From the IMG/VR virus record IMGVR_UViG_2703719368_000005: a stretch of 7,920 nucleotides of DNA, one strand, 5' to 3'. The notes under the pieces are model-generated. The model saw nothing but the letters and a program-made list of their open reading frames with translations, was not told the DNA's origin and did no database searches. The stretch's first letter is position 1; every line of letters begins with the position of its first letter. Of the stretch, positions 907-7,293 are shown piece after piece. Source of the DNA: a virus (taxonomy: Duplodnaviria > Heunggongvirae > Uroviricota > Caudoviricetes). The position numbers were made by a program, and so were the translations under genes.

Positions 907-3026
907 ATCAGGTGAACGAGAGCCATAGCCGCGCATCCGATATCTGGCGCGAAGTGGCCTCGCTGTTTCGCCCACCCAGCCGGTTACCAGTAGCGGAAGC
1001 CATCAGGCGTTATATGCGGGTTCCACGGGGAGCCAATACTTCCGGTCCGTGGGAGTCATCGCTGACGCCCTATATGATTGACCCCATTAATACATTATCA
1101 GCCCGTGAATATGACGCGGTGGTGTTTGTGGGACCTGCGCGAACCGGGAAAACCGAAGGGCTGATTGATGGCTGGATTGTGTACGGCATCATCTGTGATC
1201 CGGCGGATATGCTGGTGGTGCAGATGACTGAGACGAAGGCGCGTGAGCATTCCAGAACGCGTCTTTCCAGGACGTTTCGCCACAGTCCGGAGGTCAGCAA
1301 GCGCCTCAGTCCTTCCCGTAATGACAACAACGTCCACGATAAAATGTTTCTTGACGGCTCCTTCCTGAAGATTGGCTGGCCGTCGATCACCGTCTTTTCC
1401 TCTTCGGATTACCGTCGTGTGGCGCTGACGGATTATGACCGTTTCCCTGAAAATGTGGACGGGGAAGGGGATGCCTTCACGCTGGCCTCAAAGCGTACCA
1501 CCACCTTTATGTCCTCGGGGATGACCCTGGTCGAGAGTTCACCGGGGCGGGATATCACCGATACCAAATGGCGTTGTGGTGGCGCACATGAGGCACCGCC
1601 AACAACGGGGATCCTGTCACTGTATAACCGGGGAGACCGCCGCCGGTGGTACTGGCCGTGTCCGCACTGCGGGGAATATTTTCAGCCGGTGATGGATAAC
1701 ATGACCGGATACCGGAATAACCCGGATTTTGTGGCTGCCGGTCAGGCTGCCCGTCTGATGTGTCCGCATTGTCGCGGGCTGATTGCCCCTGAGCAGAAAC
1801 GCGAACTGAATAACCAGGGGATCTGGCTTCGTGAAGGTGAACGGGCGGCGGCGGACGGCAGTATCACCGGAACGCCACGAAACTCCCGGATTGCGTCATT
1901 TTGGATGGAGGGGCCAGCTGCGGCGTTTCAGACCTGGGAACAACTGATTTTTAAACTGCTGGCGGCAGAAGAAGAGTATGAGCGAACCGGCAGTGAAGAG
2001 ACCCTGAAAGCGGTGGTGAACACCGATATCGGACGACCCTATCTGCCCCGTTCAGCCACGGAACAGCGTAAAAGTGAACTGCTTGAACAGCGTGCCGAGC
2101 CGTTTCCCCGGCGATCTGTGCCGGATGGTGTGCGTTTTATTGAGGCAACGGTTGACGTACAGGGCGGTAAAAATCGCCGTTTTGTTGTGCAGATCACCGG
2201 ATACGGAGAGCAGGGGGAACGCTGGATTGTTGATCGCTACAACATCCGGCATTCACTGCGCTGCAGTCCCAACGGTGAAAGTCTGCCGGTTGATCCGGCG
2301 GCATATCCGGAGGACTGGGATTTGTTGCTGACGGATGTGTTCCATAAAACATGGCCGCTGGCTTCTGATCCGGATGTGCGCATGCGTCTGATGGCCATGG
2401 CGGTGGATACGGGAGGGGAAGCCGGGGTGACAGATAACGCCTATCGTTTCTGGCGTCGTTGCCGGAGTGACGGACTGGGCAACAGGGTGTTTCTGTTCAA
2501 GGGGGATGGACTTCGCCGTGACAGGCTGATTAACCGAACCTTCCCGGATAATACCGGCAGAAGTGCCCGCCGTGCCAGAGCCAGTGGCGATGTCGCGCTG
2601 TGGCTGGTTCAGACGGATGCGTTTAAGGATCGTGTAAATAATGCCCTGTGGCGTGACACACCAGGGCCGAACTATATCCACTTTCCCGACTGGCTGGGGC
2701 GGTGGTTTTACGATGAGCTGACCTATGAAGAGCGCGGCAGTGACGGAAAATGGCGAAAACCGGGCAGGGGCGCTAACGAAGCGTTTGACCTGCTGGTTTA
2801 TGCGGATGCGCTTGCCGTTCTGCATGGTTACGAAAAGATCCGCTGGCCCTCCGCACCGGACTGGGCACAGCGGGAAACGTGGCTCGTCTTCCCGCAGGAG
2901 CGTTCTGGTGAAACGGTATCCCCGGAACTGACGGCCGGGGCAGAAAAACGCCGTCGCCGGAAGAAAAAACTGTGGACGGAGCGTGCGGAAGATAATCCAT
3001 GGATAACATCAGGAGGCTGGTTGTGA
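903..3026 (+). CDS. A: Terminase large subunit, lambda gpA family (ATPase plus endonuclease)
   Basis: ORF 903..3026, 707 aa, GTG start overlapping the upstream stop. The N-terminal ...EVASLFRPPS... matches lambda gpA ...GLRSLFRPEP... at the same distance from the start. Walker A GPARTGKT at 1131-1154. Paired CPHC motifs at 1659-1670 and 1761-1772 (WPCPHCGEYF ... MCPHCRGL) parallel gpA ACPHCGEE. Size and position fit the family. Confidence 0.95.
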   Translation: MNQVNESHSRASDIWREVASLFRPPSRLPVAEAIRRYMRVPRGANTSGPWESSLTPYMIDPINTLSAREYDAVVFVGPARTGKTEGLIDGWIVYGIICDPADMLVVQMTETKAREHSRTRLSRTFRHSPEVSKRLSPSRNDNNVHDKMFLDGSFLKIGWPSITVFSSSDYRRVALTDYDRFPENVDGEGDAFTLASKRTTTFMSSGMTLVESSPGRDITDTKWRCGGAHEAPPTTGILSLYNRGDRRRWYWPCPHCGEYFQPVMDNMTGYRNNPDFVAAGQAARLMCPHCRGLIAPEQKRELNNQGIWLREGERAAADGSITGTPRNSRIASFWMEGPAAAFQTWEQLIFKLLAAEEEYERTGSEETLKAVVNTDIGRPYLPRSATEQRKSELLEQRAEPFPRRSVPDGVRFIEATVDVQGGKNRRFVVQITGYGEQGERWIVDRYNIRHSLRCSPNGESLPVDPAAYPEDWDLLLTDVFHKTWPLASDPDVRMRLMAMAVDTGGEAGVTDNAYRFWRRCRSDGLGNRVFLFKGDGLRRDRLINRTFPDNTGRSARRARASGDVALWLVQTDAFKDRVNNALWRDTPGPNYIHFPDWLGRWFYDELTYEERGSDGKWRKPGRGANEAFDLLVYADALAVLHGYEKIRWPSAPDWAQRETWLVFPQERSGETVSPELTAGAEKRRRRKKKLWTERAEDNPWITSGGWL

Positions 3027-3235
3027 GCACAGAAGAAGCCAGAGAAATGATACAGCGGTACCGTGAAGCGGAAATGGCCGTACTGGAGGGAAAGTCTGTC
3101 ACCTTCAACGGGCAGCAACTGACGCTGGAAAGCCTTTCTCAGATCCGCGCCGGACGTCAGGAGTGGGAACGCAGGCTTGCCGCGATGGTGAGCCGCAGGC
3201 GGGGAAAACCGGGATTTAAACTGGCGAGGTTTTAA
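3023..3235 (+). CDS. W: Head-tail joining / head completion protein, lambda gpW-like
   Basis: ORF 2999..3235 in the track; I favour the GTG at 3023 (AGGAGG at 3011-3016, 6 nt upstream, GTGA overlap with the terminase stop), giving about 70 aa against 68 aa for lambda W. The C-terminal ...RRRGKPGF... matches lambda W ...QRRRGPAGFYV, and the internal pattern (G-K-x-V, F-x-G, L-x-x-I) is shared. The ATG at 2999 is an alternative start. Confidence 0.8.
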   Translation: MSTEEAREMIQRYREAEMAVLEGKSVTFNGQQLTLESLSQIRAGRQEWERRLAAMVSRRRGKPGFKLARF

Positions 3236-4636
3236 TGGCAATTATTGATGATGTGATCGGCGTGTTTTCCCCCGGGTGGAAAGCAGCCAGACTGCGTTCA
3301 AGGGCGTTAATCATGGCCTATGAGGCGGTGAAACCGACCCGGACACATAAAGCCCGGCGGGAAAATCGCTCTGCTGATCAGCTCAGTAAATACGGTGCGG
3401 TTTCCCTGCGGGAGCAGGCCCGTTTTCTGGATATCAATCATGACCTGGTGATTGGTGTGTTTGACAAGCTGGAAGAGCGGGTGATTGGTGCCAGGGGAAT
3501 TATTGTGGAGCCTCAGCCATTACGAAAAAACGGGGAAATGGCGGCTGAGCTGGCTGCGGGATGGTGAAGTGTTTGCGCAGATGGTCAGTGGTGCGGGAAA
3601 CGGTCTGGAACGGACGGCGGGAGTGCCATTCTGGCTTGAGGCGATGGAGCCGGATTTTGTTCCCATGCGCACTGATGAATCCGCCGGACTGAATCAGGGG
3701 GTTTTTCTTGATGAGTGGGGAAGACCGAAAAAATATCTGGTTTATAAAAATTATCCGGTCAGCGGCCGGCAGAGTGATACGAAAGAAATCGCTGCCGGAA
3801 AAATGATCCACCTGAAGTTCACTCGTCGTCTGCATCAGACGCGAGGCTCATCCATGTTATCGGGGGTGCTGATGCGGATCAGTGCCCTTAAGGAGTATGA
3901 GGATGCGGAACTGACAGCGGCGCGTATTGCTGCGGCGCTGGGACTGTATATCCGTAAAGGTGACGGACAGGACTATGAAGATCCGGGGATCAAAGAGACC
4001 GAGCGGGAAGTCCATATCACCCCGGGTATTATTTATGACGATTTGCGCAAGGGCGAGGATATCGGCATGGTCAAATCTGACCGTCCCAATCCCAACCTTG
4101 AAACTTTCCGCAACGGCCAGTTGCGTGCAGTGGCAGCAGGCAGTCGTCTGAGTTTTTCCAGTGCGGCGCGTAACTATAACGGCACCTACAGCGCCCAGCG
4201 GCAGGAGCTGGTCGAGTCCACGGATGGTTACCTGATCCTGCAGGACTGTTTTATTGGCGCGGTAACCCGCCCGGTGTACCGGACATGGCTGAATATGGTG
4301 GTTGCGGCAGGTCTGCTGAAAATTCCGGCGGATGTGGAGATGAAAACGCTATATAACGCGACGTATTCCGGTCCGGTGATGCCGTGGATCGACCCGGTTA
4401 AGGAAGCTGAAGCCTGGAGAATTCAGATCCGGGGTGGTGCAGCGACAGAATCTGACTGGGTGCGTGCCGGTGGGCGCAATCCGGATGAGGTCAAACGTCG
4501 CCGCAAGGCTGAAATTGATGAAAACAGCAGACTGGGGCTGGTCTTTGATACTGACCCCGTCAACGACAAAGGAGGCAACAGTGCCGGAACTGAACGACAG
4601 TATCAGCGCGACACCGAAAGCCAGCATGAAGAATAA
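3235..4636 (+). CDS. B: Portal protein, lambda gpB family; reading frame interrupted once between 3485 and 3567 (N-terminal part 3235..3567, C-terminal part open from 3485 to 4636)
   Basis: The ATG at 3235 overlaps the gpW stop (TAATG). The two track ORFs (110 aa and 383 aa) overlap by 83 nt in different frames; the merged span is 1402 nt (3n+1), consistent with one extra base. Position between W and the head protease and a combined length of about 466 aa fit a lambda-type portal. The C-terminal segment NYNGTYSAQRQELVESTDGYLILQDCFIGAVTRPVYRTWLNMVVAAGLLKIP resembles my recollection of lambda gpB. Confidence 0.8.
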
Positions 4637-6605
4637 ATCCTGGTTCAGGATGCAAGCTGGGGGGCCGGGTGACGCGGATATTTATATTTATGACGAGATT
4701 GGTTTCTGGGGAGTTACCGCGAAGCAGTTTGTCAGCGAACTGAATGCACTGGGTGATATCACCCACATTAATCTCCATATCAATTCACCGGGTGGCGATG
4801 TCTTTGAAGGCATCGCCATTTTTAATGCCCTGAAAAATCAGGGGGCGACCATTACCGTGTATGTGGATGGCGTTGCCGCCTCGATGGCATCTGTGATTGC
4901 GATGGCCGGTGATACGGTCATTATGCCGGAAAATGCCTTCATGATGATCCATAAGCCATGGGGATTCAGTGGCGGGGATGCTGAGGATATGCGCAGTTAT
5001 GCCGATTTGCTGGATAAAGTCGAATCGGTACTGTTGCCAGCCTATGCGCAGAAAACCGGAAAAACCACCGATGAAATTGCCGCCATGCTGGCGGATGAAA
5101 CCTGGATGTCCGGTGCCGAATGTCTGGCACACGGATTTGCTGACCAGGTGACACCCGCTGTTGAGGCAATGGCATGTATTCAGTCAAAACGTACAGAGGA
5201 ATTTAAAAAGATGCCGGAATCCATCCGAAACATGATTACTCCGCCACGCAACAGTGCCCCGCGTGATACCACAGTGACAATCCCTGCACCGGCGGTAACA
5301 GAACCATCACCGGTACCGGCAGTGTCTGATGAGGCGACCATTCGCGCCCGCGTTATGGCTGAGCAGAAAGCCCGCATGTCAGGCATTAACGATCTGTTTG
5401 CCATGTTCGGCGGTCGCTATCAGACGCTTCAGGCACAGTGCGTGGCTGATCCTGACTGTTCGCTGGAAATGGCCCGTGAACGTCTGCTGAATGAAATGGG
5501 CAAGGAGTCCTCGCCGACCAACAAAAATACACCGGCTCATATTTATGCCGGAAACGGCAATTTTGTGGGGGACGGGATCCGCCAGGCGATGCTGGCCCGT
5601 GCCGGATTTGAAAATGTCGAGAAGGATAACGCCTATAACGGGATGACCCTGCGTGAATGGGCTCGCATGTCACTGACGGAGCGCGGTATTGGGGTGGCCA
5701 GTTATAACCCCATGCAGATGGTCGGGCTGGCGCTGACGCACAGCACCTCTGATTTTGGCAATATTCTGCTGGATGTGTCGAACAAGGGGCTGATCCAGGG
5801 CTGGGAGGAATCAGAAGAAACCTTCCAGAAGTGGACCCGTAAGGGACGCCTGTCAGACTTCAAAACAGCGTATCGCGTGGGGATGGGCGGTTTTGGTTCT
5901 CTGCGCCAGGTTCGTGAGGGGGCGGAGTATAAATACATCACCACCTCAGATCGCAAGGAGACCATTGCACTGGCCACTTACGGGGAGATTTTCTCCATCA
6001 CCCGCCAGGCCATTATCAATGATGATCTGAATATGCTGGTGGACGTGCCGATGAAGATGGGGCGTGCGGCGAAGGCAACGATTGGTGACCTGGTTTACAA
6101 GGTGCTGACGGATAACCCGAAACTGTCCGACGGTAAGGCGCTGTTCCATGCCGATCACAAAAATATTGCCACCGGGGGGATCTCCGTTTCCGGACTGGAT
6201 GCGGCCCGTCAGATGATGCGCCTGCAGAAAGAAGGCGATCGTGCCCTGAATATCCGTCCGGCCTTTATGCTGGTACCGGTGGCACTGGAGACGGTGGCGA
6301 ACCAGACCATCAAATCGGCCAGTGTGAAAGGGGCGGATGCAAACGCCGGTGTCATTAACCCTATCCAGAACTTTGCTGAGGTGATTGCAGAAGCGCGTCT
6401 TGATGCGGCAGACCCGAAAACCTGGTATCTGGCGGCGGCACAGGGCACTGACACCATTGAAGTGGCCTGGCTGGATGGTGTGGACACGCCATACATTGAT
6501 CAGCAGGAAGGTTTCACCACTGACGGCATTGCCACAAAAATCCGTATTGATGCCGGAGTGGCACCACTTGACTGGCGCGGGCTGGTGCGTTCGTCGGTGG
6601 CCTGA
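4581..6605 (+). CDS. Prohead protease (ClpP / S14-like) fused to linker (scaffold-like) and major capsid protein domain, as one polyprotein
   Basis: ORF 4434..6605 is open, but the likely start is the GTG at 4581 (GGAGG at 4571-4575, 5-nt spacer) or the ATG at 4626, since the portal ends at 4636. ClpP signature motifs: HINSPGGDV (E. coli ClpP INSPGGVI), GVAASMAS with the serine codon at 4881-4883 (ClpP QAASMGA), MMIHKPWG with the histidine codon at 4950-4952 (ClpP VMIHQPLGG). A Pro/Ala/Thr-rich linker at about 5236-5333 is followed by a roughly 360-aa C-terminal domain (about 5520-6605) in the position and size of a major capsid protein. Confidence 0.85.
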   Translation: MPELNDSISATPKASMKNKSWFRMQAGGPGDADIYIYDEIGFWGVTAKQFVSELNALGDITHINLHINSPGGDVFEGIAIFNALKNQGATITVYVDGVAASMASVIAMAGDTVIMPENAFMMIHKPWGFSGGDAEDMRSYADLLDKVESVLLPAYAQKTGKTTDEIAAMLADETWMSGAECLAHGFADQVTPAVEAMACIQSKRTEEFKKMPESIRNMITPPRNSAPRDTTVTIPAPAVTEPSPVPAVSDEATIRARVMAEQKARMSGINDLFAMFGGRYQTLQAQCVADPDCSLEMARERLLNEMGKESSPTNKNTPAHIYAGNGNFVGDGIRQAMLARAGFENVEKDNAYNGMTLREWARMSLTERGIGVASYNPMQMVGLALTHSTSDFGNILLDVSNKGLIQGWEESEETFQKWTRKGRLSDFKTAYRVGMGGFGSLRQVREGAEYKYITTSDRKETIALATYGEIFSITRQAIINDDLNMLVDVPMKMGRAAKATIGDLVYKVLTDNPKLSDGKALFHADHKNIATGGISVSGLDAARQMMRLQKEGDRALNIRPAFMLVPVALETVANQTIKSASVKGADANAGVINPIQNFAEVIAEARLDAADPKTWYLAAAQGTDTIEVAWLDGVDTPYIDQQEGFTTDGIATKIRIDAGVAPLDWRGLVRSSVA

Positions 6606-6627
6606 TAACCGCGTTATCACAATCACT

Positions 6628-6646
6628 GCCCGAAAGGGCTTTTTTT
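6628..6646 (+). terminator. Candidate weak intrinsic terminator / attenuator after the capsid gene (GCCC-GAAA-GGGC stem-loop plus T7)
   Basis: Read directly: 4-bp G/C stem (6628-6631 with 6636-6639), GAAA tetraloop (6632-6635), seven T residues (6640-6646), 23 nt after the capsid stop. The stem is short, so termination is probably partial at most. Confidence 0.35.
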
Positions 6647-6692
6647 ATGCCTGAAAAACAGCCCCACAGGGGCTGTCCGGAGAAACAGCATT

Positions 6693-7019
6693 ATGGCGAA
6701 AAATTTTGTACAGGACGGTACCACCATTGAACTGGTGAATGCCGGAGATCAGACCATCCTGAGCGGTGCTGCGGTGGTGGTCGGCAGTATGGTGGCCGTG
6801 GCCATTACCGATATTCCTGCCGGTGAGGCCGGTGACGGTTTTGCCGAAGGCGTGTTCCTGCTGCCCAAACAGTCTGCTGACGACATTCAGTCCGGCGCGG
6901 TGGTTTATCTGAAGGACGGGGTTGTGCAGCTGGCTGCAGACGGTGCGGTGGCAGCGGGGGTAGCCTGGGAAAATGCCCCTGCAAACAGCGCCACTGTGGC
7001 GGTAAAAATCAATGTCTGA
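6693..7019 (+). CDS. Small capsid-associated protein, DUF2190-like (possible head decoration protein)
   Basis: ORF 6693..7019, 108 aa, Gly/Ala/Val-rich (MAKNFVQDGTTIEL...AVKINV). GGAG at 6679-6682. It sits immediately downstream of the major capsid domain, where decoration proteins are usually encoded. The family assignment is from memory of DUF2190 proteins and is unverified. Confidence 0.55.
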   Translation: MAKNFVQDGTTIELVNAGDQTILSGAAVVVGSMVAVAITDIPAGEAGDGFAEGVFLLPKQSADDIQSGAVVYLKDGVVQLAADGAVAAGVAWENAPANSATVAVKINV

Positions 7020-7293
7020 TCTGTTTACGCGAATGTGTTGCCGGATGGACGTGGCGACCGTTCGGGTGATGGGCAAACAGGCGGAGATTAACGGCGTCGT
7101 GTACGACGTGATGCCGGAGGAAGAGTCCGCGGAGATGGGGGCGCTTTCGGGCAGCCAGTTGTCACTGGTGGTGTTTTCAGCCCGGTACCGTCCGGCCCGT
7201 CATGATGTTGTTGTGTTTGCGGGGCGCACACTGACGGTGACCCGTTATGACACGTACAACGGTAAACCCCGGATTTTTGTCGAACAGGAATGA
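7012..7293 (+). CDS. Head-tail attachment protein, lambda gpFII-like
   Basis: ORF 7012..7293, 93 aa, start overlapping the upstream stop (ATGTCTGA at 7012-7019). The N-terminal MSDLFTRM resembles lambda FII MADFDNLFD; the internal ...INGVVYDVMPEE... and ...RTLTVTRYD... parallel FII ...IRGVFDDPEN... and ...GDTLTIGEEN.... It lies directly upstream of the gpZ homolog, as FII does in lambda. Confidence 0.5.
   Translation: MSDLFTRMCCRMDVATVRVMGKQAEINGVVYDVMPEEESAEMGALSGSQLSLVVFSARYRPARHDVVVFAGRTLTVTRYDTYNGKPRIFVEQE

Follow-up and report, generated by a model that had tools for sequence, protein, structure and literature searches.

The fusion gene and the domains of its product

The stretch of DNA analysed in this study (IMG/VR virus record IMGVR_UViG_2703719368_000005; 7,920 nucleotides, in the following referred to as the window) represents the left end, with the head genes, of a lambdoid prophage from an enterohaemorrhagic-type Escherichia coli. 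It harbours, in this order, genes for a small terminase of the DUF1441 type, a gpA-type large terminase, an adaptor at the position of lambda W, a lambda-family portal protein, the fusion protein which is the subject of this study, a decoration protein, a protein at the position of lambda FII, and gpZ. The fusion gene (4581..6605, + strand) comprises 674 codons and a stop codon, and the product of 73.1 kDa combines a ClpP-like protease, a putative scaffolding part and a major capsid protein domain. Such a genetic fusion in one open reading frame (ORF) of about 675 residues had been proposed in the original prediction and was confirmed: the protein comprises 674 residues and is present in fused form in at least 82 phage records at a coverage of 80% or more (tblastn), while about 1500 or more other records contain the protease part only.

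In the ORF list, the open frame extends without interruption from position 4434 to the stop codon at 6603-6605 on the + strand. Two different start codons are in use for this gene. The RefSeq entry WP_000792357.1, a protein identical to the window product, starts at ATG 4626 and has 659 residues. Other gene callers use GTG 4581, which yields 674 residues and is also the start of cluster P0001 with its 3481 member sequences. A Shine-Dalgarno motif (AAGGAGG, 4569..4575, +) is located 5 nucleotides before GTG 4581, within the 3'-terminal part of the portal ORF, and it is by far the best match preceding any in-frame start of the fusion ORF. The arrangement AGGAGG-N5-GTG is kept in phage mEp460, in which a proline codon occupies the position of ATG 4626, and Pseudomonas phage D14L possesses GGAGG-N5-ATG at the place equivalent to GTG 4581. 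At the position of ATG 4626 the homologues show Pro, Ala or a gap, and the curated start of the corresponding Gifsy-2 gene aligns with GTG 4581. According to these sequence comparisons, GTG 4581, which had been the start in the original prediction, is better supported than the RefSeq start. Because of the strength of the Shine-Dalgarno motif, its conservation in mEp460 and D14L and the alignment with the Gifsy-2 start, all coordinates and residue numbers of the fusion protein are counted from GTG 4581.

The protease module comprises residues 1-219 (4581..5237, +). It consists of a ClpP-fold core (residues ~46-191) and a helical extension at its C-terminal end (residues 193-219), which is conserved. 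The N-terminal third of the product matched the Pfam family CLP_protease (PF00574) with an E-value of 1.7e-36, and the model NF045542 ('head maturation protease, ClpP-related') was matched with 224 bits (cut-off 120). In addition, the solved ClpP structure 6hwm matched residues ~54-197 at 2.8e-18. The putative catalytic serine, Ser101 (codon 4881..4883, +), is located in the sequence GVAASMA (AASM represents residues 99-102), which aligned with the active-site serine motif of ClpP. The putative catalytic histidine, His124 (codon 4950..4952, +), is located in MMIHKPWG (MIHKP represents residues 122-126) and aligned with the MIHQP motif of ClpP. An S14/ClpP-like domain with exactly these two motifs had been predicted before. 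The position of the catalytic aspartate of ClpP is occupied by Glu173 (codon 5097..5099, +), on which the Asp of the 'RD' motif of 6hwm aligns. Conservation was assessed in two alignments, one with 18 closer homologues (55-95% identity) and one with 55 distant homologues (34-77% identity). Ser101 and His124 are invariant in both (18 of 18 and 55 of 55), whereby the lack of conservation that could have spoken against a protease was not found, and residue 173 is acidic (Glu or Asp) in 50 of the 55 distant homologues. The domain scored 61.6 bits against TIGR00493, the model of the cellular ATP-dependent ClpP, which has a cut-off of 308.6, and the acid of its triad would be Glu173. From the sequence comparisons, the domain shares the fold and the serine-protease chemistry with ClpP, yet it is not a ClpP orthologue. 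Stand-alone ClpP-like proteases of phages align as far as residues ~207-236, and therefore the protease module ends at the proline-rich linker which follows.

The region between the protease core and the capsid domain (residues 193-319) contains this linker and predicted helices at residues 251-308. The Pro/Thr/Ala-rich flexible linker TPPRNSAPRDTTVTIPAPAVTEPSPVPAVSDE (residues about 220-251; 5238..5333, +) was recognized by its composition and its variability. It possesses 8 proline residues within 32 residues, in comparison to a proline content of 4.3% in the whole protein, and no other part of the family varies as much in length and sequence according to the alignment of the homologues. Its nucleotide sequence is only 36% identical to that of mEp460, versus 78% for the whole gene. 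A full-length AlphaFold2 (AF2) model obtained from the alignment of 18 sequences was poor (mean predicted local distance difference test score, pLDDT, 41.7) and was used only for the secondary structure of the middle region. In this model the linker has no secondary structure, and the helices formed by residues 251-274, 281-289 and 295-308 are its best-scored part (pLDDT 68-83). The corresponding segment (residues 251-308; 5331..5504, +) is a candidate scaffolding part resembling a delta domain, and R265, I269, F273 and F276 are conserved in the alignment of the 18 homologues. The low-complexity linker of the original prediction is thus present as the proline-rich stretch, but the middle region also includes these predicted helices.

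A short stretch rich in Ser, Thr, Pro and Asn (residues 309-319; 5505..5537, +) connects the helical segment with the capsid domain. It is variable and gapped in the alignment, shows pLDDT values of 55-65 at the beginning of the model calculated for the C-terminal part, and is followed by the strongly conserved motif HIYAGNGN. If the protein is cleaved during maturation, the cleavage is likeliest to occur within these residues.

The C-terminal residues 320-674 (5538..6602, +; ~38.5 kDa) represent the major capsid protein domain with the HK97 fold. The C-terminal 290 residues matched the Pfam family Phage_capsid_4 (PF25209) with an E-value of 8.6e-56, and the family Mu-like_gpT matched more weakly (6e-10). 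An AF2 model of the region encoded by 5508-6602, which was based on 87 homologues, reached a pLDDT of 87 and a predicted template modelling score (pTM) of 0.82. When it was compared with the PDB using Foldseek, 332 matches at E-values of 0.001 or lower were obtained, and the best 50 listed were all shell proteins with the HK97 fold; among the best matches were encapsulins, PhiTE, SaPI1, HK97 Head II, Bxb1, D3 and the JBD30 procapsid. The original prediction had suggested a capsid-sized C-terminal domain, an HMM (hidden Markov model) search of the segments and a structural test for the HK97 fold from about position 5520 onward. The segments were matched by CLP_protease, Phage_capsid_4 and, weakly, Mu-like_gpT, and the test of the fold was passed because the model is confident and its best 50 listed PDB matches have the HK97 fold. 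At the level of sequence, the relationship to solved capsid proteins is weak, with 9jod at 5e-5 and 8rkx/8rkc at 5e-3, which are of the Mu-GpT type. A profile search of solved structures with the alignment of the whole protein yielded only ClpP entries among the 60 matches listed.

The identity to mEp460 is mosaic along the fusion gene, and two blocks show 93-100% identity in comparison to an average of ~78% for the gene. Mosaic stretches were noted at positions 4671-4835, 5046-5255, 5256-5345 and 6111-6215, and the identity drops to 27-49% in the proline-rich linker and in a segment of the capsid domain (residues ~511-545), which may be a surface-exposed loop. Furthermore, in the O157:H7 prophages VT1-Sakai (AP000400), Sakai Sp15 and EDL933 the fusion gene is broken by an IS629/IS1203 element, and it is annotated there in two pieces, as 'head maturation protease, ClpP-related' and as a fragment of a fusion protein.

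Relationship to known capsid gene arrangements

The protein matched the NCBIfam model NF045540 ('ClpP-like prohead protease/major capsid protein fusion protein') with 1004.1 bits at a cut-off of 475, and the match covers residues 17-657 of the 659-residue form and positions 2-651 of the 652 positions of the profile. PHROG 133 likewise matches the fusion protein over its full length. RefSeq already names the identical WP_000792357.1 as a protease/capsid fusion, and this correct name occurs in hundreds of E. coli genomes. An isolated phage, ASU11, encodes exactly the same product (100% identity). In a set of 5.8 billion proteins, thousands of full-length clusters (90% identity) were found, many of them named as protease/capsid fusion, and these belong to the genera Escherichia, Salmonella, Klebsiella, Citrobacter, Kosakonia, Pseudomonas and Halopseudomonas. 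Representatives at 50% identity gave 8201 matches at E-values of 1e-30 or lower, and most of the best 150 span both domains in a single alignment, down to an identity of 36%.

The closest known system is the Salmonella phage Gifsy-2. Its product STM1034.3n.Gifsy2 (YP_001700678.1; 696 residues), which is named 'Clp protease involved in capsid processing' in its record (NC_010393), shows 60% identity with the window protein along the entire length (696 alignment columns). Both proteins share the three-part order of a ClpP-like protease, a central region and a capsid protein, and their start codons align. The genes located upstream (small and large terminase, a gene at the W position and the lambda-family portal gene) and downstream (a gene at the decoration position, one at the FII position and gpZ) also correspond to each other. 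The window protein differs in its origin from an E. coli prophage of the enterohaemorrhagic type and is 22 residues shorter, mainly due to the N-terminus and the linkers. For Gifsy-2, a 'tripartite capsid gene' was reportedly described by Effantin et al. in 2010 (Virology 402:355). The work is reported to deal with a central domain of ~200 residues with a possible scaffolding role, a T=7 capsid, and modelling with the HK97 capsid protein and lambda gpD.

Taken together, the ORF at 4581..6605 is very likely orthologous to the 'tripartite capsid gene' of Gifsy-2 and represents its counterpart in a lambdoid prophage of E. coli, with protease, linker, scaffold-like part and HK97-fold shell protein in this order. 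The arrangement is already known, named and common, and the window protein is a plain member of NF045540. It has to be regarded as ordinary because it was described for Gifsy-2 in 2010 and belongs to a common, curated family of phage genes.

A second fusion family, NF045541, was matched by the window protein with 418.4 bits, which is below its cut-off of 525, and only residues 198-656 align. A member of this family is encoded by Ralstonia phage YO135_4 (positions 1844-3937 of the respective locus, L084; 697 residues), in which portal, fusion and cement genes follow each other in the same order as in the window. From about residue 213 onward, the linker, the helical region and the capsid domain are common to both proteins, but the N-terminal ~200 residues of the YO135_4 protein do not match ClpP or another Pfam family. 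As differing N-terminal domains are found on a common scaffold-capsid part, the comparison of the sequences points to an exchange of the protease module between NF045540 and NF045541, while the scaffold-capsid part has stayed constant.

In the case of HK97, the maturation pathway is well established. With gp5 of this phage, the window protein shares the HK97-fold shell and, as proposed here by analogy, an N-terminal scaffolding part (delta domain) which is removed by the phage protease after assembly. However, the protease gp4 of HK97 is encoded by a separate gene, belongs to another family and is packaged in only some tens of copies. The HK97 shell is also cross-linked and lacks a decoration protein, in contrast to the window with its decoration gene.

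With lambda, the window shares the surrounding gene order, the families of the terminase gpA and the portal gpB, and a decoration protein in the role of gpD. In the window, the protease would be linked to a scaffold in a similar way as in lambda, but in lambda C and Nu3 are linked by nested starts in one frame and the capsid protein is separate, whereas protease, putative scaffold and capsid protein reside in one chain in the window. The covalent joining of gpC and gpE in lambda is known from the classical proteins X1 and X2. When all ORFs from the portal gene to gpZ were scanned with Pfam, no match to the families of lambda C (S49), Nu3, D, E or FI was obtained, which agrees with the earlier statement that the head-core genes are not the lambda set. 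The same scan gave CLP_protease, Phage_capsid_4, Mu-like_gpT, Phage_cement_2, Gifsy-2 (PF13856) and a sub-threshold match to Phage_attach.

The capsid domain is of the same sequence type as the gpT-type capsid proteins of Mu and of Pseudomonas phage JBD30 (PDB 8rkx). Beside the Mu-like_gpT match, this is indicated by the entries 8rkx/8rkc and 9jod, which were found by sequence as well as by fold. The capsid proteins of this type comprise only ~300 residues and are encoded apart from the protease/scaffold gene (I/Z in Mu). Fusions of protease, scaffold and capsid protein are described as common in small-genome actinobacteriophages (Microbacterium cluster EE and others) in a passage of PMC7302621. 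These unite the same three functions in one gene, but their hosts and phage lineages are unrelated to those of the window.

Neighbouring genes and the prophage

The original prediction had placed the fusion gene in a lambda-like order of Nu1, A, W and B, followed by FII and Z. This order was confirmed by Pfam, NCBIfam and PHROG matches, but some details have to be corrected: the gene at the Nu1 position encodes a small terminase of DUF1441 / PHROG 141 and does not match the lambda Nu1 family, the match of the gene at the FII position to the FII family is below the threshold, and a decoration gene, which had not been listed, is located between the fusion gene and FII. The ORF at the W position belongs to PHROG 118 (head-tail adaptor).

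The decoration or cement protein (6693..7019, +; 108 residues) was identified by matches to Phage_cement_2 (6.6e-19) and to PHROG 122 'head decoration' (4e-39), and it is 54% identical to the product of the Gifsy-2 gene at the same position. According to a passage of PMC8538268, Gifsy-2 is one of the phages whose capsid carries a decoration protein as trimers on the 3-fold axes. The stretch that separates the fusion gene from the decoration gene contains two hairpins. One of them (6626-6646) was found by eye and consists of a 4-bp stem (GCCC-GAAA-GGGC) followed by a run of seven T; a rho-independent terminator is annotated at this place in mEp460. The other one (6659-6677) has an 8-bp stem, ACAGCCCC-ACA-GGGGCTGT, and is located just ahead of the ribosome-binding site of the decoration gene. 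A simple terminator scan of the sequence between both genes reported nothing, including these two hairpins.

The gene at 7012-7293 (93 residues) occupies the position of lambda FII, and its names conflict across the databases. RefSeq uses 'DNA breaking-rejoining protein', PF13856 is described as 'ATP-binding sugar transporter from pro-phage', and PHROG 153 is a 'minor tail protein'. Considering its position, the product is most likely a head-tail joining protein.

The portal gene (3235..4636, +) overlaps the start of the fusion gene and is broken into the ORFs 3235-3567 and 3485-4636, both of which are matched by TIGR01539 and PF05136. In comparison to intact portal genes of 1503 bp it lacks 101 bp, with the junction at ~3550-3560. 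The missing segment corresponds to positions 4561-4661 of a near-identical locus (L001) and is bounded by two copies of CTGGCTGCGG; its loss shifts the frame. Of the 10 near-identical IMG/VR loci and the top 10 matches among complete E. coli genomes which were checked, none showed the deleted form of the portal gene.

Positions 3000-7000 of the window are 100% identical to the chromosome of an O111:H8 strain and 99.9% identical to the prophages VT1-Sakai/Sp15 and EDL933, and the head region is present in up to six copies per E. coli genome. With megablast, positions 282-621 did not align with the O111:H8 prophage, to which the window is 99-100% identical elsewhere. These positions comprise the first ~190 nucleotides of the small-terminase gene and the sequence preceding it, which suggests that the cos-proximal region was replaced in a mosaic manner together with the N-terminal part of the small terminase. 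A lambda-type cos sequence was sought in the window, and the matches were no better than expected by chance.

Proposed assembly, alternative explanations and significance

By analogy with HK97, lambda and Gifsy-2, the following mechanism can be proposed. Translation from GTG 4581 would yield a 73-kDa precursor, about 415 copies of which would co-assemble on the portal into a T=7 procapsid with the N-terminal ~320 residues directed inward. As these residues would be located inside the shell, scaffold and protease would be delivered automatically with one copy per subunit. According to our estimate, the internal parts would amount to ~415 x 35 kDa, or ~14.5 MDa, and would fill about a third of the interior of the procapsid (radius 22-23 nm). 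Crowding in the shell may then activate the ClpP-like domains, which would cut between the scaffold and the capsid domain, probably at residues 309-319, and digest the internal parts, and the fragments would exit. The remaining shell protein of ~38 kDa would expand during DNA packaging, and trimers of the decoration protein (the product of 6693-7019) would stabilize the shell. Following this analogy, the dose of the protease would be fixed by the fusion at one per capsid subunit, whereas lambda uses separate genes or nested starts.

Several points speak against this interpretation of the gene as a functional 'tripartite capsid gene' or weaken parts of it. The copy in the window adjoins a frameshifted portal gene, so that this prophage may fail to build heads as long as no other prophage provides the portal. 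The scaffold-like nature of residues 251-308 is suggested by their position and by helices in a model of low confidence. Expression, cleavage sites and stoichiometry of the fusion protein are deduced from the analogy with other phages, and an additional internal start, which would alter the expression, has to be considered.

An artefact or a pseudogene, in which the loss of a stop codon or an error of sequencing would have turned separate protease and capsid genes into a single ORF, is extremely improbable. This idea arises only from the fact that most phages, namely the ~1500 records mentioned above, possess the ClpP-like protease as a separate gene. The same unbroken ORF occurs in the 82 phage records and in thousands of clusters across genera, curated models exist for the fused form, and the linker stays in frame throughout the homologues although its length differs. 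As the fusion was retained from Escherichia to Pseudomonas, a lost stop codon or an assembly error as its cause, which had been named as a possible refutation, is ruled out. It is also very unlikely, though less so, that the N-terminal ClpP-like domain is a dead relic which serves only as an internal scaffold, with any processing performed by a host protease or another phage protease. The scores far below the cut-offs of the true ClpP models would fit such a relic, as would the third residue of the triad, which is Glu instead of Asp and is not invariant. However, Ser101, His124 and the motifs GxAAS and MxxHxP are invariant across identities of 34-77%, and an inactive domain would not have retained them. 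Furthermore, the domain passes the curated model of ClpP-related head maturation proteases, and no further protease gene was found in the head region by means of the ORF list and the Pfam scan.

A functional fusion protein could still be accompanied by a second product. In this case, the full-length chain would be formed together with a scaffold-capsid chain of 50.5 kDa that lacks the protease and starts at ATG 5211 (Met211); the shorter chain would be the main building block, and the protease would be present on only a minority of the subunits. How much protease a procapsid receives would then depend on the relative use of the two start sites, and nesting as in lambda C/Nu3 would be extended to the capsid protein. 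The design of lambda, in which Nu3 is nested in C, is similar. A search for in-frame internal starts with a ribosome-binding site near 5340-5520 had been suggested. A scan of all in-frame starts from 4584 to 6600 for Shine-Dalgarno motifs revealed nothing strong or convincing, and ATG 5211 was the sole candidate. Met211-Pro212 is invariant in the 18 closer homologues, which are from enterobacterial and Pseudomonas sources, and is also present in Gifsy-2 and YO135_4. A GAGG(A) or AGGAG motif is located 9-11 nucleotides upstream of this ATG in the window, mEp460 and D14L, the synonymous diversity is lowest just upstream of the Met211 codon, and the homology with NF045541 and PHROG 4523 begins at about Met211. 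Among the 55 distant fusions, however, only 8 possess Met at this position and the others Ile, Ala, Pro or Val, while Pro212 is present in 50. The Shine-Dalgarno-like motif is weak, far from the ATG and forced by conserved Glu-Glu/Gln-Glu-Phe codons, and the low synonymous diversity belongs to a near-identical mosaic block of 210 nucleotides (5046-5255) which is shared across clades, and not to a local element. Two database proteins beginning at Met211 (P0331 and P0283, from contigs L086 and L087), which look like the products of stand-alone scaffold-capsid genes, turned out to be artefacts: one contig is cut 35 nucleotides upstream with the frame open, and the other one contains a frameshifted fused gene in a draft genome. 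Considering these features of the sequence, nested expression seems rather unlikely, but it has to be taken more seriously than a joined or inactive protein. The state of the prophage is a different matter, and here the chances are about even that the fusion gene, intact in itself, is merely carried along by a defective prophage, which would form no DNA-packaging heads unless a co-resident lambdoid prophage provides the portal. The deletion of 101 bp splits the portal ORF, and the undeleted form is present in the 10 loci checked and in the top matches among complete genomes. With up to six copies of the head region per E. coli genome, complementation of the portal is possible. On the other hand, the deletion could be an assembly error, and the isolated phage ASU11 possesses the fusion ORF with 100% identity, so that nothing suggests a decay of the fusion gene. 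The question of a defective prophage bears on the present activity of the copy in the window and not on the identity of the gene.

As a discovery, the protease-scaffold-capsid fusion matters little, since it has been known from Gifsy-2 and possesses its own NCBI and PHROG families. For annotators it is of practical use that the GTG start, which is preceded by a strong ribosome-binding site, has better support than the ATG used by RefSeq. The easily induced E. coli phages ASU11, mEp460 and LLS offer test systems for the cleavage sites, the activation of the ClpP-like domain and internal starts. Beyond this, the gene is a neat biological case, in which protease, scaffold and shell protein would be supplied 1:1:1 by one chain.

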